Shown: one piece after another, positions 24,129 through 55,933 of the stretch
Layout: each line of letters begins with the position of its first letter
Numbering within the stretch: the first letter of the stretch is position 1
Source: Schmidtea polychroa
Lineage: Eukaryota
DNA length: 64,000 nucleotides
Assembly: GCA_044892525.1 (NCBI GenBank)
Contig: CM097886.1
Span: 28,396,001-28,460,000 of the forward strand
Reading direction: 5' to 3'
Notes under the pieces: generated by a model
Told to the model about the DNA's origin: nothing
The model's database searches: none
What the model saw: only the letters and a program-made list of their open reading frames with translations
Made by a program: the position numbers and the translations under genes

Positions 24129-26269
24129 TATACTTAAATGAATTACCGAATTAACAGTAGAATAAATAGTATTAATAGCATACATTAGTTAATTGGTAAG
24201 TTATGAAAAATGATAAATTTGGATCTTTTAGGTTTAATTTTTCTGTATATGTTCTTATAATGATACTGATATTAATATCTTGACTAATATTCAACCTGGG
24301 AAGGGCCGTAACTAAAAACATTTGTAATTAAAAAAATTTTAAGAGCTTATATATAACCTAAATTAGTAATTTTAATATTAGTACTGTTCGTAGTATAACT
24401 TGGGGGTATTTAGAATATGGTGGGTTACAGGTAGCCAGACATCTTACCCTTTCGTGCTGTTTCCAGCGTAACCCAGAAAACAAATGATGATCCTACCAAC
24501 TGATACCCGATGAGTGATCAAAGTTGATACTGTATCAAGTGGGTGAATGCTCGCAAAAAGTGAGCACACTACTTGCACTACAATTGTCGGGTAGTCTTTG
24601 GGTTCACGGATTATCGATAGAAGATGTACGTCCGATTTACTCTGGTCCCTTGACTATTGTTTTCCCAAATCATGCAATTTTCCCCTCAATCTCATCAAAC
24701 TAACATACATCACACCAGTGTCAAAGTATTATAATTTTATTTACAAGCTAATCATATTGTTCATTTATTGTTCACAAAGCGGTTTGAGTTGTGACGATCC
24801 TGATCCGACCGAAGGTCCGTGTTCAGCCATCCACAGTCGTTTCAATCGTTCTCTTCCGTCTCGCCCTAGCCGTTTGCGCTTAGACTTGGTTGTTTTGGCT
24901 GAGTGGATTTCGTCCAGCTCCGTAGACATTGGTCGGATGGCTGCCGTAACATGTTCATATATGGTTTTCTGATTCAGGCATGTCTCCATTGCACGCATTT
25001 GCAACTTCAGGGCGCGGATTTTGGCTTTGTCCTGAGCACTTTGGAGTTGCAATTTTTGGATTTTGTTCATACGCTTGTGCATGACTTCGGGGCGAAACCA
25101 AGTCCGTTCCATCTCTCGGCATCGCTCCTTGAACTTAGCTGACTTGAAGGCGCTCGACCTGTTGTTGGGCCTGTTCCCTGTCTTTTCGGAGGTTCTAGAA
25201 TAGTTTGTACACTAAATTACAAACATGATTAAGTGGGCTTCTTACATACTCTTCTTCTTCTCTGCGTGAGGGCATCATCAAACTCAAGTTTCTACGGATA
25301 CACAACGAATATTAAGCCCTTGAGTGCATTCTAAATCTCTGTATTCTAGCTTAAACAAATTTAATCGAATGCGAAGGCTTATGACAATATTGTTTATTAA
25401 TATTAAAGGTATTACAAATTATGAGATCACTATATTATAATTAAGAATGTAAATCACAAATTATTCGTCATACACACAGATAAGAGTGAACATTCACAAA
25501 TTATCGTTATTATTATTTCGTCGCAAAATCACGAATTTGTTTTTAACTTCGTGGAGTCGTCTTTCGGGGTCTGCAACGCCTTCTCCCTGGTACTGGCTCG
25601 ACTTCGGCCTCCTCGATGGGCCGACCGGCTTCGACCGCTTGGAGCTGGGCTTGGATTCGTCAGAGCTCATATTGTGTTGTGGTTATTGCACTGATGGCCC
25701 AATCCCGAGTTTCTACTAGCCGATTATTGTCCGGCTCGGTTTTGACCCTAGAAGGGGCATCGGGTTCGGGTCCACTACGAATTACAGGACCCCAATTGTC
25801 GAGATCCAGGCCCCGATTCTAATCATAAATTCTGTACGATATATATCGGGTGCGAAGTCGGGTGATCATCTCATCGTGTCGATCTTCTTCACTGCGAGTA
25901 CTGGATTGTGACATTTCTATATAGGATAAGAAAATTCAAGGGCACTGACGAATTTAGTTCTTGTTTTTAAATCCAAACGTCTTATTTAGAACTCCGACTA
26001 TGTCGTAGCATAAAGGATAGGTCGAATGGTAGACTATATTACACATAAATCTTAATTTATGTTAGAAATTAGATTACTTTTTATAGATCAAATTGAAAAT
26101 TTTATGGAATTACATCATGAATTTATATTATCATTAATTTAACCTTATCATTAATTTTATATTAAAATTCAAATTATACTTAAGTGGTAGAAAATTTAGA
26201 CATTAAATGGTAGTTAAATTAAGAATTTATCAAAATCATGTTTTATATTAGAAATCAAATTGTATTGAG

Positions 26270-26512
26270 ATGCTGTCAGCGAAAATTCAAAAGGAAATGG
26301 TATTGTTTGAAAATGGAGGAACACTTGGTGATTTTTTGCAAAGAGCGTATGATTTTCTAATGACAATCAAACCAACCAGTGTAGAGTCCGAACGTGCCTT
26401 TTCTGCGGCCGGACTTTTTGCAACGAAAATAAGAAGTCGTATGGGCGATGAAACTTTGGATGCACTATGCTTTCTTAAAAGTTATTTTAAAAATAACAAA
26501 GAATATGTATAA
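26270..26512 (+). pseudogene. hAT transposase C-terminal dimerisation-domain remnant
   Basis: LMTIKPTSVESERAFSAAGLFATKIRSRMGDETLDALCFLKSYF; followed by ATCCCGGGA subterminal-type repeats at 26681-26707. Confidence 0.85.
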
Positions 26513-27569
26513 TATTAATATGTATAATATTAATATGTATAAATATAATATTATAAAAATTTTTAAATACCTGTTCTTGAAATATATTAACATATTATTT
26601 TAACAAAATTAATCTCTTTCTTTTTCTATTAATTTGGTTAAAATAGTATGTTAATATATTTCAAGAACATGTATTTAAAAATCCCGGGACTAATCCCGGG
26701 ATCCCGGTAGAACAGATTAGACAATTAATGATGATTACATTATGGAGTTAATAATTATCACACCTTTGTTTTACTATAATAATAGTGTTCTTATTGAGAT
26801 CATTATTCGAATTGTAATTACTAAATCGTTGTTTATACTTCAGTCAAGGTTTACTCGTATAAAGAAAACTTAGTCTCGATGATCCAGTTGATCCACTTCA
26901 CCATGATTATTATATTATTATTATTGTTCATCTTATTTGACTTCTACATCAGCATGGACTATTCCAAATTCTTGATCTGGTAATGGTTCACGTTCCGGTG
27001 GCTATTTGCTGAATGCGCGTTAGACCGAAAGAGAGTACTCTATGAATTGAGAGTTGAGGGATATTTCCACTCAAGAATCAAACTATGATCGACAGTTTCC
27101 GATAGTTTCCAGTTGCAAGCTGCTGGCGTTCAATGGTAAGCCTAGTTGTGATGGATCCGGCGAGCATTATCCTTGATTTAGCAACCGGAAGATTTTTCAA
27201 GGCCAAAGTTTTCCTTGTATTGAAATGTATTGAAATGGGCCAACCACAAAAAATGAGCAGTTCGGAATGACCAATCCTATACTTCTCTATTGTGATTTTC
27301 TAAGCAACAGGCTGAAATAAAGTTATATGTACATTCTCTAGTCTTGATTTAGTTGTTTATTTTTATCTCACGCATAGTGCTTAGTTGTAATTTAAGCTAT
27401 CAATATTGGTACCGTATTTGACCCTCATATTATCGGGGGCGGGGGTTTACAAAAATATTAATTTCTACTTGTATATTGAATGCAAGCTGAGAATGTATAA
27501 AAGGTGGAATTAAATCAATCAGCTAATGGTCAGTTCATAAGATTTGAGGATGGTTTAAGAAATTTCAGA

Positions 27570-30500
27570 TTTGATTGGATAATAATTAAAATAAATTAAA
27601 TTCATTGCAAATTGTGAAATAAATAAAATAAATTGTATTTATATCAAATTTGATTGGATAATAAATAAAATAAATTTAATTCATTACAAATTGTGAAATA
27701 ATTATAATAAATTGTATTTATATCAAATTTGATTGAATATTAATTAAAATAAATTAAATTCATTGCAAATTGTGAAATTATTACAATTAATTGTAATTAT
27801 ATTAAATTTGATTGGATAACAATTAAATTAAATTAAATTCATTGCAAATTGTAAAATTATAATAATTAAATTTAATTATATCAAATTTGATTGGATAATA
27901 ATTTAATTAAATTATATTCATTGCAATTGTGAAATTATTACAATTAATTGTAATTATTACAAATTTGATTGGATAATAATTTAATTAAATTAAATTCGTT
28001 GCAAATTGTGAAATTATTACATTTAATTGTAATTATATCGAATTTGATTGGATAATAATTTAAATAAATTAAATTCATTGCAAATTGTGAAATAAATAAA
28101 ATAAATTGTATTTATATCAAATTTGATTGAATAATAAATAAAATAAATTAAATTCATTGCAAATTGTGAAATTAAAATAATTAAATTTAATTATATCAAA
28201 TTTGATTGGATAATAATTTAATTAAATTAAATTCATTGTAAATTGTGAAATTCGAATAATTAAATTTAATTATATTAAATTTGATTGGATAAAAATTAAA
28301 TTAAATTAAATTCATTGCAAATTGTGAAATTATAATCATTAAATTTAATTATATCAAATTTGATTGGATAATAATTTAAATAAATTAAATTCATTGCAAA
28401 TTGTAAAAAAATTAAAATAAATTGTATTTATATCAAATTTGATTGGATAATAATTTAAATAAATTAAATTCATTGCAAATTGTGAAATTATAATAATTAA
28501 TTTTAATTATATCAAATTTGATTGGATAATAAATAAAATAAATTAAATTCATTGCAAATTGTGAAATTATTATAATTAAATTTAATTATATCAAATTTGA
28601 TTGGATAATAATTAAAATAAATCAAATTCATTGCAAATTGTGAAATTATTACAATTAATTGTAATTATTACAAATTTGATTGGATAATAATCTAATTAAA
28701 TAAATTCGTTGAAAATTGTGAAATTATTACATTTAATTGTAATTATATCGAATTTGATTGGATAATAATTAAAATAAATTAAATTCATTGCAAATTGTGA
28801 AATAAATAAAATAAATTGTATTTATATCAAATTTGATTGGATAAGTATTTAAATAAATTAAATTCATTGCAAATTGTGAAATTATATTAATTAATTTTAA
28901 TTATATCAAATTTGATTGGATAATAAATAAAATAAGTTAAATTCAGTGCAAATTGTGAAATTCGAATAATTAATTTTAATTATATCAAATTTGATTGGAT
29001 AATAAATAAAATAAATTAAATTCATTACAAATTGTGAAATAATTATAATAAATTGTATTTATATCAAATTTGATTGAATAATAATTAAAATAAATTAAAT
29101 TCATTGCAAATTGTGAAATTATTACAATTAATTGTAATTATATTAAATTTGATTGGATAACAATTAAATTAAATTAAATTCATTGCAAATTGTAAAATTA
29201 TAATAATTAAATTTAATTATATCAAATTTGATTGGATAATAATTTAATTAAATTATATTCATTGCAAATTGTGAAATTATTACAATTAATTGTAATTATT
29301 TCAAATTTGATTGGATAATAATTAAAATAAATTAAATTCATTGCAAATTGTGTAATTATTACAAAATTATTGTAATTATTTCAAATTTGATTGGATAATA
29401 ATTAAACTAAATTAAATTCTTTGCAAATATTAAAATTATAATAATTAATTTTAATTATATCAAATTTGATTGGATAATAATTAAAATAAATTAAATTCAT
29501 TGCAAATTGTGAATTTATAATAATTAAATTAAATTACATCAAATTTGCTTGGATAATAATTTAATTAAATTAAATTCATTGCAAATTGTGAAATTATAAT
29601 AATTAAATTTAATTATATCAAATTTGATTGGATAATAAATAAAATAAATTAAATTCATTGCAAATTGTGAAATTCGAATAATTAATTTTAATTATATCAA
29701 ATTTGATAGGATAATAAATAAAATAAATTAAATTCATTGCAAATTGTGAAATTATTACAATTAATTGTAATTATATCAAATTTGATTAGATAATAATTAA
29801 ATTAAATTAAATTCATTGCACATTGTAAAATTATAATAATTAAATTTAATTATATCAAATTTGATTGGATAATAATTTAATTAAATTAAATTCATTGCAA
29901 ATTGTGAAAATATTACAATTAATTGTAATTATTTCAAATTTGATTGGTTAATAATTAAAATAAATTAAATTCATTGCAAATTGTGAAATTATAATAATTA
30001 ATTTTAATTATATCAAATTTGATTGGATAATAAAAAAAAATAAATTAAATTCATTGCAAATTGTGAAATTCGAATAAATAATTTTAATTATATCAAATTT
30101 GATTGGATGATAAATAAAATAAATTAAATTCATTGCAAATTGTGAAATTATTACAATTAATTGTAATTATATCAAATTTGATTGGATAATAATTAAATTA
30201 AATTAAATTCATTGCACATTGTAAAATGATAATAATTAAATTTAATTATATCAAATTTGATTCGATAATAATTTAAATAAATTAAATTCATTGCAAATTG
30301 TGAAAATATTACAATTAATTGTAATTATTTCAAATTTGATTGGTTAATAATTAAAATAAATTAAATTCATTGCAAATTGTGAAATTATAATAATTAATTT
30401 TAATTTTTTCAAACTTGATTGGATAATAAATAAAATAAATTAAATTCATTGCAAATTGTGATAATATAATAATTAATTTTAATTATATCAAATTTGATTG

Positions 30501-33150
30501 GATAATAAATAAAATAAATTAAATTCATTGCAAATTGTGAAATTATTACAATTAAATTTAATTATATCAAATTTGATTGGATAATAATTAAAATAAATCA
30601 AATTCATTGCAAATTGTGAAATTATTACAATTAATTGTAATTATATTAAATTTGATTGGATAACAATTAAATAAATTAAATTCATTGCAAATTGTGAAAT
30701 TATTACAATTAATTGTAATTATTTCAAATTTGATTGGATAATAATTAAAATAAAATAAATTCATTGCAAATTGTGTAATTATTACAAAATTATTGTAATT
30801 ATTTCAAATTTGATTGGATAATAATTAAACTAAATTAAATTCTTTGCAAATTGTGAAATTATAATAATTAAATTAAATTACATCAAATTTGATTGGATAA
30901 TAATTTAATTAAATTAAATTCATTGCAAATTGTGAAATTATAATAATTAAATTTAATTATATCAAATTTGATTGGATAATAAATAAAATAAATTAAATTC
31001 ATTGCAAATTGTGAAATTATAATAATTAAATTAAATTACATCAAATTTGATTGGATAATAATTTAATTAAATTAAATTCATTGCAAATTGTGAAATTATA
31101 ATAATTAAATTTAATTATATCAAATTTGATTGGATAATAAATAAAATAAATTAAATTCATTGCAAATTGTGAAATTCGAATAATTAATTTTAATTATATC
31201 AAATTTGATTGGATAATAAATAAAATAAATTAAATTCATTGCAAATTGTGTAATTATTACAATTAATTGTAATTATATCAAATTTGATTGGATAATAATT
31301 AAATTAAATTAAATTCATTGCACATTGTTAAATGATAATAATTAAATTTAATTATATCAAATTTGATTCGATAATAATTTAAATAAATTAAATTCATTGC
31401 AAATTGTGAAAATATTACAATTAATTGTAATTATTTCAAATTTGATTGGTTAATAATTAAAATAAATTAAATTCATTGCAAATTGTGAAATTATAATAAT
31501 TAATTTTAATTTTTTCAAATTTGATTGGATAATAAATAAAATAAATTAAATTCATTGCAAATTGTGAAATTCGAATAATTAATTTTAATTATATCAAATT
31601 TGATTGGATAATAAATAAAATAAATTAAATTCATTGCAAATTGTGAAATTATAATAATTAATTGTAATTATTTCAAATTTGATTGGATAATAATTTAATT
31701 AAATATAATTCATTTCAAATTGTGAAAAAATTATAATAAATTGTATTTATATCAAATTTGATTGGATAATAATTTAAATAAATTAAATTCTTTGCAAATT
31801 GTGAAATTATAATAATTAATTTTAATTATATCAAATTTGATTGGATAATAAATAAAATAAATTAAATTCATTGCAAATTGTGATAATATAATAATTAATT
31901 TTAATTATATCAAATTTGATTGGATAATAAATAAAATAAATTAAATTCATTGCAAATTGTGAAATTATTACAATTAAATTTAATTATATCAAATTTGATT
32001 GGATAATAATTAAAATAAATCAAATTCATTGCAAATTGTGAAATTATTACAATTAATTGTAATTTATACAAATTTGATTGGAAAATAATTTAATTAAATT
32101 AAATTCGTTGCAAATTGTGAAATAATTACATTTAATTGTAATTATATCGAATTTGATTGGATAATAATTTAAATAAATTAAATTCATTGCAAATTGTGAA
32201 ATAAATAAAATTAATTGTATTTATTTCAAATTTGATTGGATAATAATTTAAATAAATTAAATTCATTGCAAATTGTGAAATTATAATAATTAATTGTAAT
32301 TATTTCAAATTTGATTGGATAATAATTTAATTAAATTAAATTCGTTGCAAATTGTGAAAAAATTATAATAAATTGTATTTATATCAAATTTAATTGGATA
32401 ATAATTTAAATAAATTAAATTCTTTGCAAATTGTGAAATTATAATAATTAATTTTAATTATATCAAATTTGATTGGATAATAAATAAAATAAATTAAATT
32501 CATTGCAAATTGTGAAATTATAATTGTGAAATTATTACAATTAAATTTAATTATATCAAATTTGATTGGATAATAATTAAAATAAATCAAATTCATTGCA
32601 AATTGTGAAATTATTACAATTAATTGTAATTATTACAAATTTGATTGGATAATAATTTAATTAAATTAAATTCGTTGCAAATTGTGAAATTATTACATTT
32701 AATTGTAATTATATCGAATTTGATTGGATAATAATTTAAATAAATTAAATTCATTGCAAATTGTGAAATAAATAAAATAAATTGTATTTATATCAAATTT
32801 GATTGAATAATAAATAAAATAAATAATATTCATTGCAAATTGTGAAATTAAAATAATTAAATTTAATTATATCAAATTTGATTGGATAATAATTTAATTA
32901 AATTAAATTCATTGCAAATTGTAAAATTATTACAATTAATTTTAATTATATCAAATTTGATTGAATAGCAATTAAATTAAATTAAATTCATTGTAAATTG
33001 TGAAATTCGAATAATTAAATTTAATTATATTAAATTTGATTGGATAGAAATTAAACTAAATTAAATTCATTGCAAATTGTGAAATTATAATAATTAAATT
33101 TAATTATATCAAATGTGATTGGATAATAATTTAAATAAATTAAATTCATT
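27570..33150. repeat. AT-rich satellite, 79-bp unit, ~70 copies
   Basis: Unit TTTGATTGGATAATAATTAAAATAAATTAAATTCATTGCAAATTGTGAAATTATAATAATTAAATTTAATTATATCAAA; first two TTGATTGG at 27571 and 27650. Confidence 0.97.
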
Positions 33151-35784
33151 GCAAAAAAAAAAAAAACTCCGCCGTACCAGAGGGTATTTATCGACGAACC
33201 CAGTGGCATTTACTACTGAGTCGGTGCGACTTCCGACGACCCCGCAACATATAATATTGATAGATGTGTGCCAGGCAGTGGCCTGCATACGTCAAGGCTG
33301 TTTGCTCAGTGACATTAAATTTAATAAATTAGATGCAGGACGGATCAAAATCGAAGATCATTCAGTTCGATTTTAACTCATCCTTCAAGCTAAATAGAAG
33401 TAAAAATTTCAAAAAAAAATCGATCGACCTAATCAAATTAAGAATCATATTATAATAATATTATAATAAAATAACATATCGTTCTTACTGAATGTTTCCG
33501 TTGGTTATACAAAATAGCAGTAAAGGTTTTTGGCATAAAGAGTGTTTTTGTGACTAAAAAACATCGGTATATATGCCTATTTTTGTGTGTGCAAATACAC
33601 ATGTGCTCGTTGATGCATTAAAACAAACTCGAATTCTTTTTATTCTAGAATTTTCTATTTTCGATAATTTTCATGGCAATTTTAGTGCCATAATTTTTAT
33701 TTTTATTTTCAAATTTTTATTTTTTAATTATTTTCTGTTAAAGTTGCCTCCATGATGGATTTGGACAATTCCAGAACATTCCATATTAAATTAAAGTTAA
33801 TTTTTATTTTAATATTGTTTTTTCTAAATTCTTTTTTCAAATTTTTATTTTTAAAACTAATTTATTTATTTTTATTAACTTTTGTTGATTTTCATGGCTT
33901 TTATGATGGATGTCGTCATTTTAATAAATGGTTCTAGAATTTCATCTAGAATTTAGTATTTTACTATCTTTCGATATCATTCGAGTCTGTTTTTGTAATT
34001 TTTTTTTATGTTTCTCTGTTATGTTTGAGTTGATTTTCTTGCAATACTTCTTGCATTTGTGAGATTTTATTTAATTTCAATGTTTTATTTTTCTGCTGTG
34101 TTTCTCTTAATTAATATTGTTTATTTGGTGTTTTTATCTTTGTATTTAACTAAACTTATTGTCAGGTATGCATGCTATGTGCTAACACATTTTGTCACAT
34201 TTATAAGATTTTGGGTCTAGAAATCAGTTCTAGCCCAACACTTATATAGTTAACAACTTATATTGTTATTAAATCATTTTATTAACCTTACATCAATAAT
34301 CAACATTGTCATTAACTGCTACCATACTCGAGTCCTCTATCACTTGTATCGTTAACCATTTTGGTTATTATTACCTTAATTTTATCTTATTACCCTTATA
34401 TTACTAACGTACATTATGATCAATCAAATCATATTAGCCACCCAATTTACTCATGGTATTCTCGACTTAGTTTAGAATCACCTCAATTTATCCTATTAAC
34501 CTCATATTGTTAACTCATACCTTAATAATATTCAGATGACGTTATTTATAATAACCATATCTTCCTTAATACCCTATCCCGTATAAACATGATAAGTGAC
34601 TCATATTTCACCCTAACTATGTATTTCCTTTTAATCCATCATCAACTATCACCAAACTATCCTATCTCACATTCAAACTATTGAATTTATAATAACCCAT
34701 CTCATCAGGGTCTCACAAAATTCCACAAACTGAATGACGATAGACTTCAATTAATTAGATTATAAAGTTATTCATTACTTTTTTTATTCCTTACCTTGTG
34801 TACGGGTTGCAAACTAGGCTATAGCTATATTGTTTGAAGTGTATAAATCAATTTTTTTTAATTCTTAACAGCAAAATCTATCCAAGGTAAATACCATGAA
34901 CTGACCCATAAGCCAAATGTTCAAACTATAATACTTACTGTTATGTGCAAGAAAACTAATATTCGTGCAATTGCTTAATTGTGGATATAATAGGTATATA
35001 GTTGTTATTGTATTTTATATTTATGTTCGTTGGTGTGAGTGTGCTAAGGAAATTTGATGAACCCAGCCGAGTCACCAGTAAATGAACTGTCTCGGGACAG
35101 CTGGGTGAATGTATGTGGTGCTATATTAATACAAGTAAACTAACGATAACAATTATCAACTTCCAACTTTTATTTATAAAATAATGTAAAGACCTTTAAT
35201 CGCCAAGATAGAGTTCGTTCGACGTCAAATAGGTGGTAATTATATCTCGTGTACAACTGCTAAATTCTTTGAAAACGAAATGTGGATATTTTTCTGATTC
35301 TCGTTCTTCCTTATTTTTATCGTAATAATTTATATTTTCGATTTGGTCCAAATTTAATTTTGGAAATTGAGACTTTCGAATGAGTCTCGTATAGAAAAGT
35401 CAAAAATATAATGTTGTCACAAAAATAAGTCAAATAGAATATAATATTTGGATAAGTGATATGAATGGAAGTAATATTATCTCGGGATGATTATTTCTTC
35501 TTTGAATTTGGTACAAATTTGGTGAAATGAGAATTTACAAATAATAGTTAAACAGCAATAATATCTTTAGTTTTTTAATTTCTGTATTCTTCTATCGATT
35601 TTTTTTAATGTTTTTAATTTAATTTTTATAATTTAATTTTTTAAATTTTTTTTTAAAGTAATCTATTACTATAGAGAATTGCTATATAGACTTTTTTTTG
35701 GATCTCGGAGGCTGTTACCCGAATTGAGTTAACTAATATAATTCATAATGGTATTAAAAAAATATACCCAAAACATTAACTTTA

Positions 35785-36417
35785 CATTACATAACTTCCC
35801 CCTTTAAAACCGGAGGTTAACATGAATCAATAAAAAGTGAAAGTAATAACATTGTTACAATAACCATTTTTTTAATTTTTCTTTGTATGTTTTATGGATC
35901 TGGTACCGGATCCATGAGTGGATGTACGAGGATACGGTACCAGTACAGCCAAAAATAGAGCCCTACAACAAACTGTGGAAGGAGGCTCTGATGCGCGCCC
36001 TCGAAGAAGGACGACTGCATCGGATCTAAAATAAGATCCTGAAGAGCGAACTCGAAGACCCGGACGGAACCGCCCGACTACTTTGCAGTGAGGATAGGCT
36101 TGCCTATGATGGATTTTGTTTGTTTGAGTGGCTTCGAATTAAGGTATGATAAGGAAATGAGATCCGGGAGCACAAACTAAAAGAGATGGACCAGGAAAAT
36201 CGGACGTAGGCCTTCTGTTGGCAGTCCGTGGACCCAAGGGAGTACGGGACAGTTATAGTATACAGAGTATACTCACTTTCTGCTAGTACTCCAACCCTTG
36301 ATACATTACCAAAGTTGATCACTCAACGGGTATCAAGTGGTCAAACTTCAATTGTATTCTGGGTTACGCTGGAAACAGCACGATGAGGTAAAATGTTTGA
36401 TTACCTTAAACCCGCCA
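35785..36417 (+). mobile_element. 3' fragment of a third LTR subfamily (C)
   Basis: 36195-36417 aligns with 42630-42862 and ends AAACCCGCCA; CATTACATAACTTCCCCCT resembles the motif near 40755-40773; 5' end not found. Confidence 0.65.
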
Positions 36418-39104
36418 TTTGACAAATAAAATTATAAAAAAGAACGACATTTTGCAAAAGTTACTTTTAGTGAATCAAATTTTAAAATTTAATCGAGAGT
36501 TGTTTTTTATAAAAGTTTTTTTTTGTGAATTTTTACTGTTTTGGCTTTCAGTTTGTTCGTAATAAATGTAACTTGCAAACTTTAATTTAGAATTATATAT
36601 CTAATTTTACTTCGTTCAAATAAAAAGACATTAAAGAACTCCCACTTTTTACTTGTTTTTATTTCAACAGAGTGAGGCAAGATAAGTAAAGCAGTAAGAA
36701 GAATTTAGTTATCACCTGAAAGAACCAGATTTGTATGAGCGGATAAAATGCTTTTCTAAACTCAACCAACATTTAATAGTGAAAAGTAAATCTTTTTGTA
36801 TTACAGTGCTGGCGTGTGATTTAGATTGAAAAGGAGCTAGAAATTGACTTCAGTTAAATTCAAAAAGTTTGAGATCTTCTCAGTTGATTTCAAAAATGAT
36901 CATTTTAGTCGTGAGGCTTCTGGACCATCAGAGAATAGAAGAAATTCACCGGGCATGATTGAGAGTAAAACGACTATCATGTCTTAACAACCCGTGTGAG
37001 CACCATCAGCGTTACCGAAAAGATAAATTATTATTTTTTTAAATCTCTGTAATGAAAGGTATAAACAAGAATAAACCTAAGGTATAAACCTAAGGACTTT
37101 CCATTGCATAAAACTTTTTGTTAGACACTTATTCTAACAATATACACTCCTCCACGAAAAACTTAGACTTTTCCGCCATGAATTCAATTATTTAATTTTT
37201 AATTAATTTTATGTTCAATAAACCGTTTCATGGAAATCCGATTCTTTATAAATTCAAAGATCTTCTGGAACTTTTAAATATTGGTAAATTCGAGAGTTTT
37301 TTTTTGTTCATCTCTGATTTATCTTTGTTTTCCTCTAAAATTTCTTCTTATCTACATTTCGACAATAGATCGTTGTTTCAATTGTTAAAATATTTAAATA
37401 ACACTTGATAAGGGCAGTGCCGAAAATTTGAAATAAATAAGAAAAAAAATGAAGATAATCGGAATTCAAAAGTTAATACTTGACAATTTTTAAATGTTTC
37501 GAGTGTTGGGCTAGAACTGATTTCTAGACCCAAAGTTGGGAATGGGACGAAATGTGTCAGTACACAACACGCATACCCAGCATTAAGTTTACTTAAATAA
37601 AAATATATAAAACACCAAGTAAACAATGATAATAGAGAGATAATATACCCAAAAATAAAACATCTGAATTAAAAATAAAATAAAACACGAGCAAGAAGTA
37701 TTACACGAAAACTTACTCAAATATAACCGAAAGACATAAAACAACAAAAAACAAATTCGAATAAAGGCGATTAGTAAAAATTAAAAAAAAAAAATTAAAG
37801 AAAATCTTCATAAAATCTTACGTAAAGAAAATTATATCGATATTTTGAATAAAAATCCAGAACAATTCATAAAAATGGCGAAATCCATCATGACGGCCAA
37901 ACGACCCAATAAAATTTATAAAAAATAAATATTTTAGTTTAAAAAATAAATATTTTAGAAAAGAAATCATAAAAAACAATTTAAAAATAAGAAATAGATT
38001 GAATTTAGCATGGACTGTTCTGGAAATGCTGAAATCCATCATGGAGGCAAATTTAATAAAAAATAATTCGAAAATAAAATTTCAAAAATAAAAACAAAAA
38101 TTCTTACTGAAAAATCGCCATCAAAATCGATAAAAATTAAAAATCGAATGTTCGAGAATTAAAATAATCTGAATTTGTTTTACTGCATCAATGCACGCAT
38201 GTATACTTACACGTCAAACAGAGGCTATATAAACTAACACATTTCGTCACTTTTTAAGCAAAGAAAAAAAAATGCAAATGAATATTTTTACTCTTATGCC
38301 AAATTTTTGGTTTTGATTTTTCTGAGATTGTAGGTAAGGACGATTTCATTGTGAATTATAAATTATTATTATTGAAACCTTGTTTTCATTATTTCTTTTT
38401 AACTATAGAAATGTAGGTTTGAGTGAGATCGTCGGTTATCATTGATTTTGAAGCGAGATCCCAGTCAACCCTGCACCTATGCACTTCATCATCGATGAGT
38501 AAACAGCCCACAATGATCGCAGGCCACTGCCTGGCACGCACTTATCAATATTATTGGTTTTTTTTGTTCAGGTCATTCGGAGGTCGCACCACTTCATGGT
38601 TCTGCCATGGAGTTAAGTCGATGAAATCCTCCGTCTGACTCTACCTATTTATTATAGGTCAGCCGTAAAGGGTTGACTTACCACACAACAGTAAGGTTTG
38701 TCGTAGTGGTCACAGTGGGGCCGCGAAAGCAAACACTCTTCCCGACTTTCAATACATGAATAACTTACATAGTTAAAATCTACATCCAAAATCATCACAA
38801 TACAATACACTAAGGTTAATAAACAGAGTAGATCTCAGACCTAAATTAATCACAACTCTACAACTCACAATTAATGTAGACGGTTAAATATCATCAAAAA
38901 CCAACTCTACCTATACGTTTGTCGAATCTAGATTTATAAATGTCCTAAATAAATTTTCTAGTAATAATGTAAAGTAAAGATTTTTTTCTAAATGATTGAT
39001 TTAGTAGCGATAGTATTCATAAAGGTGTTCGACATGCGTATCGGCAAGACTTGGATTTTAAATTGAATAGACTCTGAACTAACTATAAAAATACAAATCG
39101 TAAA

Positions 39105-40010
39105 CCCATAAAAGTATAAATTATCATCTCAATTGCATAAAAATATGAATTATACTTATAGATTTAATTTCTTCAAAATATAAATTATGATTAGTTATAA
39201 AGGTATAAATTACAAATTTAATTTTTCAAAAATATAAATTACAAGTTTATATTGACTGTAAAATTATAAATTATAACTCTAAGTTAATTACAAAAGTATA
39301 AATTATAATCCTAATTTCATAAAAATATAAATTATAATTAGTTATAAAAGTATAAATTATAAATTTAATTTCCTGAAAATATAAATTACAAATTTACATT
39401 GACTATAAATTATAAATTATAACTCTAAGTTAATTACAAAAGTATAAATTATAATCCTAATTTCATAAAAATATAAATTATAAATTATAACTCTAAGTTG
39501 ATTGTAAAAGTATAAATTATAATCTTAATTTCTTCAAAATATAAATCATGATCTTAAAAGTATAAATTATAAAATTATATTAGCTACAAAATATAAACTA
39601 TAAATTTACCTTAACTTCATAAAAATATAAATCATAAACTTAAAAATATAACTTATAAAATTATATTAGCTTTAGAAATATAAACTATAAATTGAACTTC
39701 ACCAAATATAAATTATACACTTAAAAAAAAAAAATAAATTATAAAATTATATTAGCTTTAAAATATAAACCATAAAATTAGCTTCATAAAAATATAAATT
39801 ATAAACTTAAAAATACAAATTATAAAATTATATTAGCTTTGGGAATATAAACTATAAATTGAACTTCACCAAATATAAATTATAAACTTAAAAGTATAAA
39901 TTATAAAATTATATCAGTTCTAAAATATAAACTATAAATTTAACTTCATAAAAATATAAATTATAAAATTATATTAGCTTTAAAATATAAACTATAAATT
40001 TAACTTAACT
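39105..40010. repeat. Degenerate AT-rich tandem array inside the LTR (copy at ~54658-55563)
   Basis: Repeated AAAATATAAATTATA / AAAAGTATAAATTATA / TTATATTAGCTTT modules. Confidence 0.85.
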
Positions 40011-40346
40011 TAGATTGCCTTTAACATCATAGTTGAAAATTTTTCATCAAAGACCCCCCATAAACCATATAGTCATCAACTACCACCTAAATATACTAAA
40101 TTAGCTTATCTTAATATATATTTAACTTATATTATATTTTAAAATATAAATTGAAAATTTTCATAAATGACCCCCCTTCAAATTATGTAGCCATTAACTA
40201 TTCCTTAGGTATACTGAATTGTATCATCTTCGTATAGAGTCAAATTATATTTCAAACCAAAAAAAAAAAAAAAAATAATAATTCCATAAATTTTCGTAAA
40301 TGATCCCCCCCCCATATGTAGTAATCTTATAAAAATATAAATTTAC

Positions 40347-40377
<31 letters not shown>

Positions 40378-41177
40378 GTTATTATTATTATTATTATTAT
40401 TATTAGCATTGTTACCAGTAACATTATCACTCTTACTATTATTATTACTATTATCATTATTATTATTATATTATTAAAATAATTATCTTTATTTCATAAA
40501 AATAAAATTATAAAACAAATTATTGATTTTGGGATTCCCCTATCTCTAAATTTAGTTTCAATGGCCCTATCTTCCAATAAAATTACGGAAAATCACTAAA
40601 ATCTATTTTTAGTAACACCCCCCCCCTGAAAACGACATCAATATTATTAATTTAAATTATATCCATATATGTATATATGTGTGGGTGTATATGTATGTGT
40701 ATATATAAGTGGATGTGTGTATGTACATACCGATTTATAAAACAACCTTATAACCATACGATAACCTTCCCCCTCAAGACCCCTGTTATGTAATGGTCAC
40801 AACCCCTTTAAGGTGATGGAACGAGGATAGAGTAGTTTACTGAAGTAATTTAGTAGAATCATTTATTAATTTATTAAAATTATTGGATTTATTTTTAACT
40901 AGATCAAAAGAAGAAAAAGAAAAACAAAGACTAAGTTTATTGATTTCGATCATCAAATTTATTCACATAATTGTTTCTTTGAATCATATTCATACCAAAA
41001 AGTCCTTCGAGCTCAGTTGATGGACCATCCCGATGAAATACATTTCCTGGGGTTGGAAAATGGAAAACTTATATTAAAATATCTTTCAGAATTTCTTTTA
41101 GATTTCCACAATTAAATAATTCCAAATTATTTCTCACAAATATATTCGATCAAAAAGAATTTTAATATTTTATTTAA

Positions 41178-41846
41178 TTACAACATCCTGAATTTATTTC
41201 TTTGCTTGGCTGCTTTAAGATCATAAATGGGCATTTTTCATTTATTAATCGGATAAGATCAGTTTTTCTGTACAACCTTTACATTCTTCACCCCAGCTTT
41301 CTAATATTTTTTGAGATCTTTAACGCGAGCTTTGTTTAGATTAATACCAGTAAGATCAATAGGTTTGTCTGAAAAATAGTTGAATTAATATTTAAAATCT
41401 TAACTGAACATACCATATTTTAATTCACCAATTTGTGCATCAATTGCTTTTAGTTTTTCAGACTTTTTCAGCGGGCATAACCCAACTCAAAGGCCGAGAC
41501 AAATGTTTTACAATATATGCAGTAGATGTTACCAATCCTCCAATATAATAACACTAAAAATAAATTACAATTTTATAGTAATCAGTTATAATACCTTACC
41601 AGACTTTATTCTTTTCCTTTACTTGTTTTGCTCATCTTTTTGAATTTATTTTCAATATTTTCGATATTTGTACTTTCATCTCCATCTAGACTATCTTTCA
41701 GGCGTCTCACAAACTTAACACAAACTGAACAATTTTTAAATATAATAAAAATAAGTGCCAAATACCTTCGCAATTATTTTCATTAACTGTAGCTGACATT
41801 ACATAGTAAACAATGATTAGAAAAGAAAAACTGATAAAATTTTCAT
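41178..41846 (-). pseudogene. MANF: Captured MANF/ARMET gene copy, 4 exons, disabled (in 5' LTR)
   Basis: Reconstructed MKILSVFLFLIIVYYVMSATVNENNCEVCVKFVRRLKDSL...[38 protein letters not shown](C)[66 protein letters not shown]; GT-AG introns 41725-41765, 41554-41599, 41369-41413; one nonsense codon, a 2-bp deletion and several 1-bp homopolymer deletions. Confidence 0.92.
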
Positions 41847-42870
41847 TGCAAAATATTACTAATATAAAAAAAAATGGTTTGTTAAAAAAAAATAATTAGT
41901 TAAAACAAGTTTAAAATACTTCAAACTGACGTATAAGTTTTGTTTAAAATGTAAGTAACGAGTATTGTAAAATTAATTTAATATTATTATAAATTTTGAA
42001 TTAAAATTTTCTTAAAATTCTAGAAAAAAAAAAATCTATTATTAATAGAAAACAAATTTTTAAAAATAAATAAAGTTTGAGTCAATTTGAATTTTCTAGA
42101 AGTATCTCTTAAAATTATATAGGGAATTGTTTTGTAACAGTTATTGATGTATTTTGAATTTATTTAACTTGAATTAAAAATATAATATTAACAAAAATGT
42201 ATTGTGAGATTTTGATTGTTGATCTAACCATCTCTCTATAACTACCCGGGCTCAACAAAGGGGAGTGTCATTGTAGGTCAACTAGGACAGTCATAGTCAC
42301 CGCGAAATACGCTTAGTCAAATAATACGCGGTCATAAACAATCATGGTTCTTGTAAAGTTATTATATTTTGTTGTTGTGGTTGGTGAAATTTCTGACCCT
42401 TATTTGTATGTTCACTAATATATAAGTTGTTTGTTTTTTGATTATTTTCTAATTAAATTCATTATTCCCAAAAATTTCTTAAGGTATGTTTAATAAACTT
42501 TGGCTATGTTTCACTTAATTTGTGGTATTGTATGAACAGGTTTTAATGGATTAATGTATGATTCCTGATGACTTATGATCGTTTGAGGATAGAAAGTTTG
42601 TATAGGCATAGTTGAGAAAGTAATTATAATAAGGGACCTGCGTAAATCGGACATATATCTTCTAACGATAGTCCGTGAACCCCGTAGAGTGCTCGACAAT
42701 TACAGTGCAAGTAGTGCGCTCACTTTTTGCGAGCACTCACCCTCTTGATACAGTACCAACGTTGATCATTCAACGGGTATCAAGCGGTAAACAATGTTGT
42801 ATCTTGGGTTACGCTGGTAACAGCACTAAAGAGCAAAATATTTGATCATCAGTAACCCACCATACAAATT

Positions 42871-42888
42871 TGGGGGCTCAGCCGGGAT
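42871..42888 (+). promoter_or_regulatory. Primer-binding site, tRNA-Pro-like
   Basis: TGGGGGCTCAGCCGGGAT, 16/18 match to the canonical TGGGGGCTCGTCCGGGAT, 8 nt after the LTR end. Confidence 0.85.
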
Positions 42889-43749
42889 ATTTAAACTTTC
42901 TTGGTAAAGAACCTGTAAGTAGACGGGAATGCATAGCAGTTTTTTGATCAGGAAATGAAATGCTTTATGCAAGAGTAAGAAAGATTGTTTTCTCAAATAA
43001 CTAGACATGATGTGTGAATATGCGTGTATGATCAAAATGAATGTTGAATGTTGTACATGATGAATAAAATGTTTTAAATTATGTAAATATAGAAAATCGA
43101 TAAAACTGGGTATGAGAATAATGTATGAGCGTTCCGTGTTGATGGGACAGAATGTTGATGGGTAAGAAATGAAATAAAAATCAAAAATAAAAAAAATTGT
43201 AAATATAAACAACTAATACTTTGGATATAAGAAAATAATAAAAAATTCAAAAATAGGGAAAAGGGGGGGATAGAAAATAGCGGTATATAGAAAAAGGGGA
43301 TAAAGCATAAAACAGTGAATTGCGAAATAGAAATAGATAGGTGATGCAATTAATTAAAAATAGGGGGAAGATGTAAAAATAAGTTAAAGATTAAAGGGTT
43401 ATATTGAGTACTTGATCAAATGACTAAAATTATGGACACGCTGGGATCAAAAGGGTTACGTAGACTAAGATAATAAACTAGAGGGAACGGATAAAAATGT
43501 GCGGAACATCATTTAATGGATTGGGAGCCTAAACTAACAGGGTAAAACAGCTATTGAACTTACTTAATTTGAATAAGGAAATAAATGGGTAGAGGTAAGC
43601 TAATTAAAGGGGAATAAGAACACTTAATAAAATGCTGAATTAATAAAGTATAACTTGATGGAATTAACCGGCTACATTATAAAGAAACTTGAAAATTCGT
43701 AAATTTAACTAACAACTCACTACAAAGATTGAATTGAAAAGCAGAGCAG

Positions 43750-44161
43750 TTGGCAAACATCCAAGAAGGACTGATCTTAAAACCAAGACCAGTTGATGAT
43801 GAATTGTGTATAATGACGAGAATTGCTACACCAAATGTGGAATTAACTACTCAAAGAGTATATCAGATTCAGAATTTACGTTTAGATAAGGCCAAATTTA
43901 ACATCAAATGGCAAGAATTAAAGATAAAAATTTAAACGGTTGAAGATGCGATAAGAGAGGCGATCGATAATGAGTTCAAATGTTGTGTGTGTAGAAGCAA
44001 TGAGATAAAAATAATGATGGTACATTGCGGACATCGATGTTATTACCAAGATTATGCATTGAAACTGAAACCATTGTAATGTATGTGATGCAAACGTGAG
44101 AGAAAGAGTAGTAGTGTACCTCCCTAAGGGAGATGTAGAAAAATTAAAGATGATGAAATGA
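43750..44161 (+). pseudogene. Decayed RING-finger (C3HC4, IAP/MDM/neuralized-like spacing) ORF
   Basis: In-frame continuation past TAA at 43933 gives CCVCRSNEIKIMMVHCGHRCYYQDYALKLKP, then after a 1-nt frameshift CNVCDANVRERVVVYLP; two expected Cys are TAC/TAT. Confidence 0.75.
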
Positions 44162-44878
44162 ATTGCTGCTGAGTGTGAGTTAGTAAAAAGTTAGTAAAAC
44201 TAATTCCATAATAGCAACCGAAAGGTATAAAACATACGTTGAACATAGACATATGAAATACACAAAAGCCGTTAAATAAATAGACAAGCAACACACAAAT
44301 TAAATTGGCGAAAGCCGTGAATTAAATACAGGACTGGCTGGGATCGCATCAAGTGTGAGTTGATCTATAAGATCAGTACGATTACCATTTTTTTTCCTGT
44401 TTTTGTTTTATTATTTTTGGCATAGAGAGACAGGACCATAAGGGGATGAGAAGCATATCGTCCCTACGATGCTTACACGGATGGGGAAATCCTGATCACC
44501 TTGATGAGAAGAGTATAATTGGGCCCATCGCAAATGTTGGAGAGTTTCTGTCGAGTGACTGATCACCACTTGTGGGAAATGAACCAACGCGATTATTATA
44601 TTTTTTGAATTTGGGAGACTAGGACAAACTAGAAGGGTAAATAAAAAGAAAAAGATAAAAATAAAAATTGAAAATGTGCACCAAAAGATTAAAAATTAAC
44701 ATTATCCGAGAGCAGCTGCGGATTTGAAGAAACCGTTTTTGGACTTCAAATCGGATGAGGAGTACTCATTGATATGAATTTTTCCCTAGCGAGTGATGAG
44801 GCACCCGAGTACAGCGGCTAACCACCGGACTGTAGTGTCCAGGAGATTATCAGCCAAGGGACTGATGATGCTGGATCA

Positions 44879-45450
44879 CCCAATACAAAAACCCGGATAC
44901 CACACCGAGTATTGGGCGCACTTTTTTGAGTTGCTAGCGGGACTTGATACAAAAACCCGGAAGGGTAGCGAGCGAGAGAGACCCAGTTACCTACACCGAG
45001 TATTAAGGAGCCCAGTGAAACGGTTGTGAGATGCGGGTCAACCGGTAAAGGACTCGTACTCAACAGGCAACCAAGATTGGACCAGTTGTGAGGCGGAGGA
45101 CCGAAAGTCAACTGCATATCCAATTTCCTTTTATCTTCACTAGTCGGGAGATCTGGTTCATCACTTTTGAGAATCAGGATCGAGGCGATTAGATATTTCC
45201 GTGTTTTTTAAATCCTGATAGATAGGATGTTTTTTCTTCGTGATTATTGCTAGCAGGGGTCGGTACAAAACCCGGATGCCCACACCGAGTACCGATAGGC
45301 CCAGTGAAACGGCAATGAGATTAGAGTTACCGGTATTAGGCTCTTTTCAATAGGCGGCCAAGAATTGAGCCAGTTGTGAGGCCTCAGCAGATTAGGAATT
45401 TGAGTAGGAGGAGCCTTGAATTTTTAATTGGTCCGAAAGTCAACTGTCAA
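44879..45450 (+). other. Repeated structured-RNA-like modules in the 5' leader
   Basis: Three copies of stem-AAAA(A)CCCGG..ACACCGA-stem with different but complementary closing stems; two copies each of CCCAGTGAAACGG..ACCGGTA and CAGTTGTGAGGC..CCGAAAGTCAACTG. Confidence 0.6.
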
Positions 45451-45560
45451 CTCAATTTAATCGCGGTAGGGACGATAGTAGGTGTAAAAACCGAAAGCGT
45501 CGAGGGGTTGAAGAAACCTCATTTAGGGCATTTGAAACCGGTCAGGGACCGAAGACCGCG

Positions 45561-45880
45561 AATATGGCGTAATGGTGTAAAAGCCCAGACGTCGAGGAGT
45601 CGTAAAAGACTTCAGATTATGATTAAACCGGCCGGAAGCCGATGCCAACGTAGAGGTCTAACAAACCAAAGCGTTGATGGGTAATAATGGATAATATGGC
45701 GTAATGGTGTAAAAGCCCAGGCGTCGAGGAGTCGTAAAAGACTTCAAATTATGATTAAACCGGCCGGAAGCCGATGCCGACGTGGAGGTCTAACAAACCA
45801 AAGCGTTGATGGGTAATAATGGATTATATGGCGTAACGGTGTAAAAGCCCAGGAGTCGAGGAGTCGTAAAAGACTTCATG
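45561..45880 (+). repeat. ~2.4 tandem copies of a 132-bp unit
   Basis: ATATGGCGTAA recurs in units starting at 45561, 45693 and 45825. Confidence 0.9.
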
Positions 45881-46842
45881 GGATTAAAATGAGTTGATTA
45901 AACCGGCCAGAGAGCCGATGGTAATTGAGTGAAATGATTTAAATGAAATAAGAGAGTTAATTAAACCGGCCAGGGAGCCGATGGTAAATAAATGTAGACG
46001 CAGAGATCGCGCGAACCAAAGCATCGATGATTAACTATAAACAAACGATTAAGATGAAATTGATTAAATTGAATAGATTAAGTGCGACAAAGATGTAATG
46101 AGTAAAGGAAAATTATGATAGAGCGCCGGCGCAAGAGAAACTGAAGCCAAATTTTTGAATGGGGAAAAGCGAATGAGGAGACATTAATTAAGTTACTGAT
46201 GAGTTTTATATGTATATGACTAATGATATATATTTTCAATTATATAATTGATGTTGTGATTATATGATAGATAATTGATACGACGATATAGATAATTGAT
46301 ACGAGTTATAGATAATTAAAAATGGACTTAAATTCAAAGGGGGTGAGTAGCAAAAAGTAAAAGCGTACCATGAATTAGAAAAGGAACAGCGAGAGAAATA
46401 ATGAGTAAAGAGTAGTATAAAATAAAGAAAATAGGGAAATAAATGAAGGGTAGGATAAAATGAATAAAATATTATGATATGTACTAGGAGTGTTAATTAT
46501 TTTAGAATAAGTCAATCAATAAGTCAGAAGGAAGTCAATACAAGCCAAGAATTCAAGAGAAATAAAGAGAAATCAAAAATTCAAAAGAAATCAAATAAGG
46601 AATCAAGAGAATCAAACGAGGATAAAAGAAAGCTAAACAAAGTCAAATTAAATAACAAGAGGAAAATTAAAGCGTTGGCCAACGAAACACAGTGAAATTC
46701 AAAAGGGATTATTAAAGCAAGAAAAATTGATAATAAAGCCAATCGAACGAGATCGCCGAGCAAAGGAGGCTCTAGTTTATTAGGAAACGCAGGGAGACAA
46801 AGAGCCAAGAGAAACAGAAGAATCAATAAGAAACCAGCGTCA

Positions 46843-48573
46843 GTGAAAACATTATTTGAATCAGACAGCTTAACCAACGAAAGTGAAAACAGCGACGATA
46901 TTAAAAGAAACGAATTATATCCGGTAACTGATATCAAACCAACAGACAAGGAAGATAGTAGTTCAGGCATAACAAGTTTGTGTCGAGATATAATGTTAGA
47001 CGGAAACCAAGTGAACAACCCGAATGGGTCAGAGTCGACATACACACCCGAGATAAACCATGTCAACGTCAATGTTGGAGAATTTAGAGAAAGATTTCGA
47101 GGAGAACCATTCGATGGGAATATTAATGAACTAGAAACGTTTATAAAAGAATTCGAGGTATATATTACGATATGTCACTGGCCAGACATAGTCGTACGAG
47201 AGCGAATACCATTATATTTAAGAGGAAGTGCACAAGATGTATATTTAGAGGCAAAGTGTGATGCAACAAAACTAAAAACATGGAAATCAATAAAGAATTT
47301 TTTAATAAAAACATTCGGTAGCAAAAGGGAAGTAAATCGCAAAATGTTGGATTTTCTGCATCGAAAGCAGAAATACAATGAGTCAAACGCACTATATGCA
47401 TGTGAATTAAGACGACTGGCAAAAGAAGCATTCGATTCAAATCAAACAGTTCCGGAAGACAAGATAATAGCCGTATTCGTAGAGGGTATGAAAAGAAAGG
47501 ACATACGAGCAACAGTGGGTTGCCGAGCACCAGACACGCTCGAGGAAGCATTAAAAATCGCTAATAAATGTGAAAACTACTTGACTCCAGTACAAGTAGC
47601 AGCAATGGCAGCAGTACCAATAGCTACAACACCAACAACGACAACCGAAATTAATCAAACCAACAATGAAAATCTAGGAATGAATCAATTTATCTCAGAA
47701 TCGCAACAGTTGTTCAAGGCGCCAAAAACGACAAATCCAGATAACAGAGGTAATATTCAATTTTACACTAATAATTTCAGGAGCAACGAGAACAATAATC
47801 AGAAGTGTAACATATGTCAACGACTAGGACATTGGAGCAACGAGTGTTATAAGACAAGGATGTGCCAAAATTGCGGTAAAAGGGGGCACACAGAAAATAT
47901 ATGCCGAGGACCAATGATGTCGATGAGAGGAGGAAGGACTAGAACCTGCTACAGTTGCAACCAACTTGGACATGTGGCGAGAGAATGCGCAATGAGGACA
48001 AAACATAATCAACCAAGAGCAAACGATCCAAGTCAAAATATACAAGTCAACATCATGCAGGAAATTGAACAGTTGAAAAAGATGATCCAACGGATACCAG
48101 AGGATATCCAAAAACGACCAACAAGAGAACAACAAGATCAGCAACGAATCGAGGGGCAGAGACCACTAAACGAAAAAGCCAGAGAAATTCAAAAAAAATG
48201 GAAAAAGCGAGAAACCAACACCGGAAGAATAAATATGATGAGATTAATGAACAAAGGGGAACCGCACACTGCGGAGCAGTGTGTTAACAAGGAAGGGAGC
48301 GATATGACCGTAATCAACGAGACAAAAGTGATAAAAGAAAATGGGTCACATCAATTGACGGAGCAATTGACAGAACTGAGTAGCGAGGATAAAATAAAAA
48401 TAATACAAGGGTTCACCAAAGAAGAAAAAGAAAAGAGACGAAGAAGAGATGAAACAGGCACGAACCAAAAAGCAACGAGATTGTTACAAAGAATCGAATT
48501 CAGAGGGTATTACTACAAAAAATTGAAGATAGAATTAGAAGAGAAGAACCAAATTTTACGGATGAGCAAGTAA
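46843..48573 (+). CDS. gag: Retrotransposon Gag with three CCHC zinc knuckles
   Basis: Capsid-like PFDGNINELETFIKEFE..W..IPLYLRGSAQDVY; knuckles CNICQRLGHWSNEC, CQNCGKRGHTENIC, CYSCNQLGHVAREC. Track start is GTG; first ATG near 46993; the frame is open back to a TGA at 46693. Confidence 0.92.
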   Translation: MKTLFESDSLTNESENSDDIKRNELYPVTDIKPTDKEDSSSGITSLCRDIMLDGNQVNNPNGSESTYTPEINHVNVNVGEFRERFRGEPFDGNINELETFIKEFEVYITICHWPDIVVRERIPLYLRGSAQDVYLEAKCDATKLKTWKSIKNFLIKTFGSKREVNRKMLDFLHRKQKYNESNALYACELRRLAKEAFDSNQTVPEDKIIAVFVEGMKRKDIRATVGCRAPDTLEEALKIANKCENYLTPVQVAAMAAVPIATTPTTTTEINQTNNENLGMNQFISESQQLFKAPKTTNPDNRGNIQFYTNNFRSNENNNQKCNICQRLGHWSNECYKTRMCQNCGKRGHTENICRGPMMSMRGGRTRTCYSCNQLGHVARECAMRTKHNQPRANDPSQNIQVNIMQEIEQLKKMIQRIPEDIQKRPTREQQDQQRIEGQRPLNEKAREIQKKWKKRETNTGRINMMRLMNKGEPHTAEQCVNKEGSDMTVINETKVIKENGSHQLTEQLTELSSEDKIKIIQGFTKEEKEKRRRRDETGTNQKATRLLQRIEFRGYYYKKLKIELEEKNQILRMSK

Positions 48574-48653
48574 AAGAAAAAGTAAAAGACAACTGATTCA
48601 GGAAAAATGAGTGGTTCGAAAAGAAAGAACCAAGTAACAGAGCCAATATAAAC

Positions 48654-51392: not shown

Positions 51393-51747
51393 GAAAGTGA
51401 TGAGTCGATGTAAATAGTGTGTATATAAACGTGAGGGTAAAAGTAGTTTAGTAGATTAGTAATATGTTCAAAAAAAAAGGTACAAAAAAATGGGTAGGAT
51501 AACTACGTATTATGAATGAATCAGAGAAACGAGGATCAAGTATATCAAACGAGGATACCACATGTTGTTGAATTGGGAAATCAACCACTAGTAAACATTA
51601 ATCAGACATAAATAGTAGAAATTGATACAAGTACAACGATAAACCAACCAAGTTAGTCAGCAGGATCAATGTGAAGAACACAACGTGAATTAATGACAAA
51701 TGACAAACCATACCCAAGAATATCGGTTACGTAATTAGAATGCGTTA

Positions 51748-55899: not shown

Positions 55900-55933
<34 letters not shown>

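Follow-up and report, generated by a model that had tools for sequence, protein, structure and literature searches.

An antisense, intron-bearing MANF gene within both long terminal repeats of a Gypsy element of Schmidtea polychroa

Can the long terminal repeats (LTRs) of a retrotransposon contain a slot in which genes are exchanged between conserved ends? The question is raised by 64,000 nucleotides (nt) of the planarian Schmidtea polychroa (GenBank assembly GCA_044892525.1, contig CM097886.1, positions 28,396,001 to 28,460,000; hereafter the window, with position 1 as its first letter), in which an earlier note distinguished three LTR types, A, B and C, and proposed a Pack-type family with a swappable cargo slot. 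Our analysis covers this 64-kb window, together with protein, RNA and literature searches. It finds a single proven cargo, a MANF gene with three introns that lies antisense in both LTRs of a complete element, A, and it finds B and C to be lone, undated remnants.

A complete element without pol

Element A can be delimited at both ends and consists of the following parts.

37504..58418, plus strand: element A, non-autonomous Ty3/Gypsy (Burro-like) LTR element, complete, 20,915 nt (LTR pair and CGAG flanks)
37504..42862, plus strand: 5' LTR of A, 5359 nt, TG...CA (direct-repeat pairing)
39080..40010, plus strand: AT-rich degenerate tandem array of A (tandem-repeat detection)
42871..42888, plus strand: primer-binding-site-like motif, 8 nt past the 5' LTR (sequence)
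43738..44076, plus strand: accessory frame with a RING finger, broken, upstream of gag (PF13920, E 6.6e-5; match to P0008, E 2.4e-10)
46696..48573, plus strand: gag, 625 amino acids, Ty3 capsid and three CCHC knuckles (PF19259 above cut-off, PF00098)
48597..51392, plus strand: open reading frame 2 (ORF2), 931 amino acids, two hydrophobic segments (no family match)
53058..58418, plus strand: 3' LTR of A, 5361 nt, with the MANF cargo as in the 5' LTR (direct-repeat pairing)

The two LTRs are 99.9% identical and differ by two small indels, and because they are near-identical A is a very young insertion. CGAG stands on both outer flanks as a 4-nt target duplication (chance match of two random 4-mers from this window, P=0.009). 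Between the LTRs lie 10.2 kb, on whose sense strand Pfam and motif searches gave no match to reverse transcriptase, protease or integrase. The motif just past the 5' LTR may resemble the 3' end of a tRNA-Pro; no tRNA genes were found in the window. Before the 3' LTR a polypurine tract is absent, the 38 nt preceding 53058 (53020-53057) not being purine-rich; these same 38 nt hold a G-run motif that resembles the primer-site motif on the opposite strand.

The CCHC knuckles of Gag fall at positions 371, 390 and 418, and a search with this protein returned 1272 matches, including 13 relatives at E<=1e-30. ORF2 weakly resembles the post-gag part of one Gag relative, P0152 (E 6e-6), with which it has a short recurring motif in common. 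Its hydrophobic segments flank a cysteine-containing region, which is the layout of a membrane glycoprotein; the ectodomain found no match in the atlas. In the leader of A, a GC-rich 132-nt repeat is present in 2.4 copies (45561-45878).

The giant Gypsy elements of planarians, Burro/GYPSM1, offer the closest comparison. In the available part of their description, Burro elements exceed 30 kb and carry a three-knuckle Gag and accessory open reading frames (PMC6431247). A resembles them, as far as that part goes, in its Ty3-type Gag with three CCHC knuckles, its upstream RING frame and its long coding stretch after gag, and we take the many Gag relatives, at 44–75% identity for the best, as a further Burro-like trait. 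It differs, in a comparison made with these described features and not with Burro sequence, in its length (20.9 kb against more than 30 kb), in having no match to protease–reverse transcriptase–RNase H–integrase, MATH, BCL2 or env, and in a captured gene that sits in the LTRs, antisense and with introns. In its workings A would thus be a non-autonomous Burro derivative, and we do not class it with Burro-1 to -4 because its size is too small and its pol is missing.

MANF in both LTRs

The earlier note had recognized MANF in the LTR of A, and the domain families ARMET_N and ARMET_C, together with structures of MANF and CDNF, bear this out.

41177..41846, minus strand: MANF gene, captured, four exons, antisense to A (Pfam PF20145/PF10208, PDB, frames)
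41846-41766, 41724-41600, 41553-41414 and 41368-41177, minus strand: MANF exons (frames, GT-AG borders)
41725..41765, minus strand: MANF intron 1, 41 nt, GT-AG (splice borders)
41554..41599, minus strand: MANF intron 2, 46 nt, GT-AG (splice borders)
41369..41413, minus strand: MANF intron 3, 45 nt, GT-AG (splice borders)
56733..57402, minus strand: second MANF copy, in the 3' LTR, identical (alignment)

Pfam was scanned with 24 stop-free pieces from the middles of the three LTRs and from a GC island described below. Five of the 24 match ARMET_N or ARMET_C, in profile order (41248-41722, minus strand), two of the five above the Pfam cut-off (E 1.6e-8 and 1.8e-8), and the profile positions run on across intron 2 (5–42, then 46–76). 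In the PDB, one piece has seven matches and another has 16; all of the former and the best 9 of the latter are MANF, ARMET or CDNF, or an unnamed entry that scores alike. Human MANF has four exons as well, according to the available part of PMC8568515. The frame opens with an ATG at 41846, includes a signal-peptide-like exon and closes with a stop near 41177.

This gene is no longer intact. It is broken by an in-frame stop and by five or more frame changes, the last two of which were placed by eye through comparison with the C-terminus of MANF and lack Pfam support. Three of the frame changes fall at A-runs; errors of sequencing or assembly are nonetheless unlikely to account for the breaks, because four other open reading frames of the window contain 62 A/T runs of 5 or more without a stop.

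How the gene came to stand in the LTRs is constrained by its two copies. The 670-nt segment 41177-41846 is letter-identical to 56733-57402, and because the same gene is in both LTRs it was copied together with the LTR around it; the identical twin excludes that MANF was inserted later into just one of them. An origin from spliced mRNA is likewise excluded, because three GT-AG introns are kept. A nested Pack-TIR finds no support in A between 40540 and 42700, where no inverted ends or duplication frame MANF and only AT-rich pairs of 70–93% occur. For A, then, the claim that the cargo lies inside the LTR holds, given the identical twin, the 4-nt target duplication of the element and the lack of framing ends. 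An intron in antisense is invisible to the splicing of the element RNA, which allows a cargo of this kind to survive reverse transcription.

Downstream of MANF and on its strand, a coding-like stretch bounded by splice sites (40952-41068) is possibly a second captured piece; it has no match in Pfam, NCBIfam or PDB.

Conserved ends around unrelated middles

B and C can be set against A through the parts that they have in common.

37504..38231, plus strand: 5' module common to A and B, 728 nt, 71% (alignment)
38496..38554, plus strand: GC island common to A and B, 81% over 59 nt (alignment)
42631..42862, plus strand: LTR end block, conserved and structured, common to A, B, C and a further copy, E (alignment, fold)
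24418..34240, minus strand: B, LTR-like remnant that stands alone, 9823 nt with and 4232 nt without the array, both ends present, TG...CA (alignment)
24418..24651, minus strand: end block of B (alignment)
36188..36417, plus strand: C, end block of a third subfamily (alignment)

The sharing that the earlier note had described is real and differs from it in extent. Its 3' block of about 270 bp measures 233–236 nt (A/B 81% over 236 nt, A/C 73%, B/C 75%), and the opening 31 nt, in which A and B agree fully as claimed (37504-37534; 34210-34240), begin a module of 728 nt. The GC island stands as proposed. A tandem array at the same position in A and B is correct only as a rough co-location, the arrays themselves being unrelated (score 29 versus 28.3 +/- 4.5 in shuffles). 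In the stretch that separates the 5' module from the GC island, A and B barely align.

Unrelated middles are likewise upheld. Local scores place a sharp edge of homology about 240 nt from the LTR end in all three pairs. As DNA, all six comparisons of the middles give scores that shuffles also give (27–44, with shuffle maxima of 36–47); as protein, the three pairs do no better than chance, their scores being reached by 34–35 of 40 shuffles. Nor did any of 152 Gag-related proteins match the middles. The segment after the array is 2620 nt long in A and 2913 nt in B. A candidate homology between GC-rich frames of B and C was rejected, since 137 of 1000 shuffles score equally well.

Structure points to constraint at the ends. 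The first 31 nt of A and B fold into an 11-bp hairpin (z -2.6 and -3.75). In the consensus fold of the end block, 9 of 59 pairs are changed on both sides, versus 3.2 +/- 1.4 in shuffles; none of 500 shuffles reached nine, and slid controls gave 0–2. Folding z is -5.3 for the end block of A and -2.4 for that of C. The GC island shows no significant fold (z +1.1 to -1.2; compensated pairs, 0 of 11). In A the end block also pairs with bases directly after the LTR, as would fit an element beside a primer site. The MANF cargo may be located in U3 or in a long R–U5, and an R region of 2 kb is given for rice Retrosat2 in the available part of PMC3485330.

B, C and other LTR remnants

B and C hold, in place of MANF, a transposon fragment and several GC-rich frames.

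27565..33155, no strand assigned: tandem array in B, 79-nt unit, 70.6 copies, 87% matches (tandem-repeat detection)
26252..26709, plus strand: hAT transposase C-terminal fragment, antisense to B, with a GC-rich subterminal-like end (PF05699, E 2.7e-6)
25546..25914, minus strand: GC-rich frame a of B, interrupted by stops, same sense as B (no family match)
24765..25211, minus strand: GC-rich frame b of B, 148 codons, same sense as B (a possible intron of about 51 nt precedes)
35891..36187, plus strand: C GC-rich coding-like stretch, upstream of the C end block (no family match)
63329..64000, minus strand: E, another A-type LTR end (alignment; exits the window before the MANF position)

B keeps its parts in the order and orientation of A (5' module, island, array, end block), and its TG...CA termini agree with the claim that it is an LTR. 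Replication of B as one LTR with its present middle is not borne out: it has no target duplication (flanks AATA and CTTA, with the 5- and 6-nt flanks also differing), and neither a partner LTR or second copy within the window nor a primer site after B was found. Its array of 79-nt units spans 5.6 kb, and LTR-borne tandem arrays can reportedly seed satellites in plants.

The hAT fragment named by the earlier note is confirmed by its PF05699 match. What it retains of a DNA transposon is the final exon with one of the two ends; the other end is not in the window, and a scan for 8-nt duplications gave 15 one-mismatch AT-rich matches, none of them exact. It is transposon debris and not a host gene. 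Between the hAT stop codon and the GC-rich end lies an inverted repeat (26559-26682; 55 bp, 95%, 14-nt loop).

The GC-rich frames of B and C stand apart in composition. Their GC content at third codon positions (GC3) is 0.46–0.53, versus 0.28–0.37 in three flanking genes, and that of the MANF and hAT pieces is host-like at 0.24–0.28. Neither the B nor the C frames match Pfam, and frame b of B gave no usable match in the atlas, Pfam or NCBIfam; a search for homologues of frame b at near or longer lengths found none, a weak negative in that the same search missed MANF exon 2, a known positive. In GC3 these frames are not host-like, and they are perhaps old accessory genes encoded by the element.

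The cargo of about 400 bp that the earlier note had assigned to C cannot be defined, for no LTR start motif was found upstream and C is without a 5' end. E differs from A by 9 substitutions and one gap in 672 columns. A junction at 63297-64000 links an A-type LTR start of 33 nt directly, just past the terminal hairpin, to an inverted A-type LTR end; it could be a nested insertion or a copying accident. Elsewhere, three tandem 675-nt units, 99% alike, occupy 14361-16405 and are homologous to about nt 57–735 of LTR A (69% over 361 nt); they are the remnant of a fourth LTR subfamily with its 5' module triplicated. A Ser/Asn-rich open frame of 901 codons without a family match (17279-19984) adjoins them. 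Joining the 14.3–16.4-kb remnant and C into one element was tried and rejected, as the flanks mismatch by eye.

Other features of the window

The window is AT-rich, is interrupted by four N gaps and carries host-like genes that lack introns. One gene, at 60660-62606, encodes a kinesin without introns whose motor domain is C-terminal. A strong pyrimidine skew at 20600-22600 resembles the internal leader of a minus-strand LTR element; tblastx of this stretch against the interior of A gave no match. The Rfam scan of 33000-54000 found no ribozyme or other RNA, and such a reading is ruled out there, a single mir-297 chance match lying below threshold. Among metagenome and viral contigs, 0 matched the conserved motif of the LTR end; a search for gag-related loci in the same two sets gave 216 and 5 candidate stretches, respectively, none of them confirmed.

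Explanations for the unrelated middles

We consider it probable, with reservations set out below, that the LTRs are diverged subfamilies with constrained ends and an insertion-tolerant middle, and that unspliced host MANF DNA was captured once and then decayed. The subfamilies would belong to a Burro-like Gypsy group and would have separated deeply. Constraint would act on the integrase ends, the 5' module and the folded block of about 235 nt next to the primer site, and the LTR middle would be dispensable and accept foreign DNA. Because the constrained parts of A, B and C are themselves only 71–81% alike (19–29% diverged), unrelated middles are expected without any swapping mechanism. In the lineage of A, an unspliced piece of the host MANF locus would have entered the LTR middle in antisense, through DNA repair or recombination in the LTR or through a template switch onto an antisense read-through transcript. 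Reverse transcription would then have copied it into both LTRs; MANF would have decayed as a passenger during replication, and A, without pol, would have moved in trans. In the corresponding zone, B and C would hold other material, the GC-rich frames and the hAT scrap.

A somewhat unlikely possibility, compatible with this account, is that B is a decayed mosaic, either of halves from different insertions or of an LTR whose array expanded, and which took up the hAT piece and the GC-rich frames, once it had integrated, in which case A alone would be informative. The missing 4–6-nt target duplication, primer site and partner LTR would fit, as would a hAT piece with one end only and the abundance of truncated relatives in the window (C, E and the 14.3–16.4-kb triplication). 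Set against these are the two intact termini, in one orientation and around parts in the order of A, and a hAT piece whose best 8-nt duplications are the unconvincing one-mismatch matches given above.

Several observations weigh against diverged subfamilies with a single capture. There is one proven cargo, in one insertion. Taken by itself, the end block of B has a fold that shuffles match (z -1.25), and the consensus fold was derived from the four sequences on which it was tested, two of them nearly identical. That a very young A has no polypurine tract before its 3' LTR is not explained by the model. The common edge of homology, the similar post-array lengths and the identical first 31 nt all fit a modular swap, and the two outcomes that the earlier note had named as contrary to its proposal, alignable middles and extra pieces with target duplications of their own, were both looked for and neither was seen.

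A true exchangeable slot, in which template switching or recombination at the edge of the end block would repeatedly swap the upstream 2.6–2.9 kb between subfamilies and load genes, is in our judgement unlikely. Beyond the edge found in 3 of 3 pairs and the 2620- and 2913-nt segments, it draws on gene-like content in that zone of A, B and C and on an opening of 31 nt that is identical in A and B, although the sequence behind it is 71% identical. Structural constraint gives a sharp edge too, however, and ends that are 73–81% alike record no recent swap; E, the only other A-type end, keeps the sequence of A over all 672 nt seen, and neither B nor C, each a single remnant, has a target duplication. 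It is equally doubtful that Burro-type LTRs at large are modular, with an exchangeable 2.6–2.9-kb cassette directly upstream of a folded 235-nt block, which subfamilies would fill either with entire unspliced host genes, their introns surviving reverse transcription by lying in antisense, or with accessory genes of their own.

Selection on MANF, now or formerly, as an antisense accessory gene or a small-RNA decoy with a function in endoplasmic reticulum stress or survival, strikes us as quite improbable. The entire coding region was captured, with its start, signal-peptide-like exon and all splice sites; Burro elements carry BIR and BCL2-like domains, and PIWI-interacting RNAs (piRNAs) target planarian LTR elements, according to the available parts of PMC6431247 and PMC8532177, respectively. 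Yet the frame changes, at least five, and the stop are identical in both LTRs of a very young insertion. It is scarcely credible that a collapsed or mis-joined repeat put a host locus into the LTR, rich in repeats and N gaps as the window is, for A has its target duplication and two small differences between its LTRs, its MANF is pseudogenized as a working host gene would not be, and among the 19 runs listed there are 5, belonging to two studies, that contain at least half of the words of 40400-43400 (a measure of presence only). Runs with smaller shares were left aside, and no RNA run was listed among the holders.

Relation to known systems

Foreign DNA in LTRs has precedents, and an antisense, intron-bearing host gene in a Gypsy LTR differs from them. 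Like A, the non-autonomous elements Cassandra, Helenus and Ajax hold host-derived sequence within their LTRs. The piece in Cassandra is reportedly short, conserved and 5S rRNA-like and lends a promoter, and those in Helenus and Ajax are said, by title, to be small RNA genes; A, in contrast to the short conserved piece of Cassandra, carries a 670-nt decaying protein gene.

The chimeric LTR of BARE-2 and that of Veju are also alike in that foreign sequence enters an LTR and founds a subfamily. The available part of PMC13317346 attributes both to abnormal template switching, the piece in BARE-2 coming from Wis-2; there the donor is another retrotransposon or DNA of unknown source, whereas the donor of A is an intron-bearing host gene. 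With LTR-mediated retroposition (Tan et al. 2016, PMC5131818) and maize Bs1, A has in common that host coding sequence is re-copied by a non-autonomous LTR element. The retrocopies of that study, in the part available, are without introns and replace internal open reading frames, whereas A keeps three introns, inside both LTRs. Gene fragments in either orientation are described for maize Sireviruses in the accessible part of 10.1101/777037.

Pack-MULEs and Pack-TIRs resemble A in the capture of intron-bearing genomic DNA between conserved termini, and gap-filling repair, as in Pack-TIRs, is a plausible capture route, on the available text of PMC8277862. Pack-TIRs are, by that same text, DNA transposons with inverted ends, whereas the cargo of A is without such ends and is copied by reverse transcription. 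Our literature searches found no whole intron-bearing host protein gene inside LTRs and no report of MANF in planarian elements, with the limit that the primary Burro description and Repbase, which may describe LTR content, were beyond reach.

Implications for planarian genomes

Gene capture by retrotransposons is usually recognized by intron loss and an internal position, and the MANF of A breaks both rules. If the slot reading were true genome-wide, these LTRs would form a distinct gene-shuffling system; if the modular cassette were real, animals would have a means of gene duplication through RNA in which every insertion brings two copies of an intron-containing gene and solo LTRs retain them. 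MANF is a conserved gene of the stress response, and its antisense copy in an element that piRNAs target could also give rise to small RNAs against the host MANF. Finally, paralogues with introns in planarian genomes could have travelled as passengers of LTRs, doubling with each insertion and staying behind in solo LTRs.

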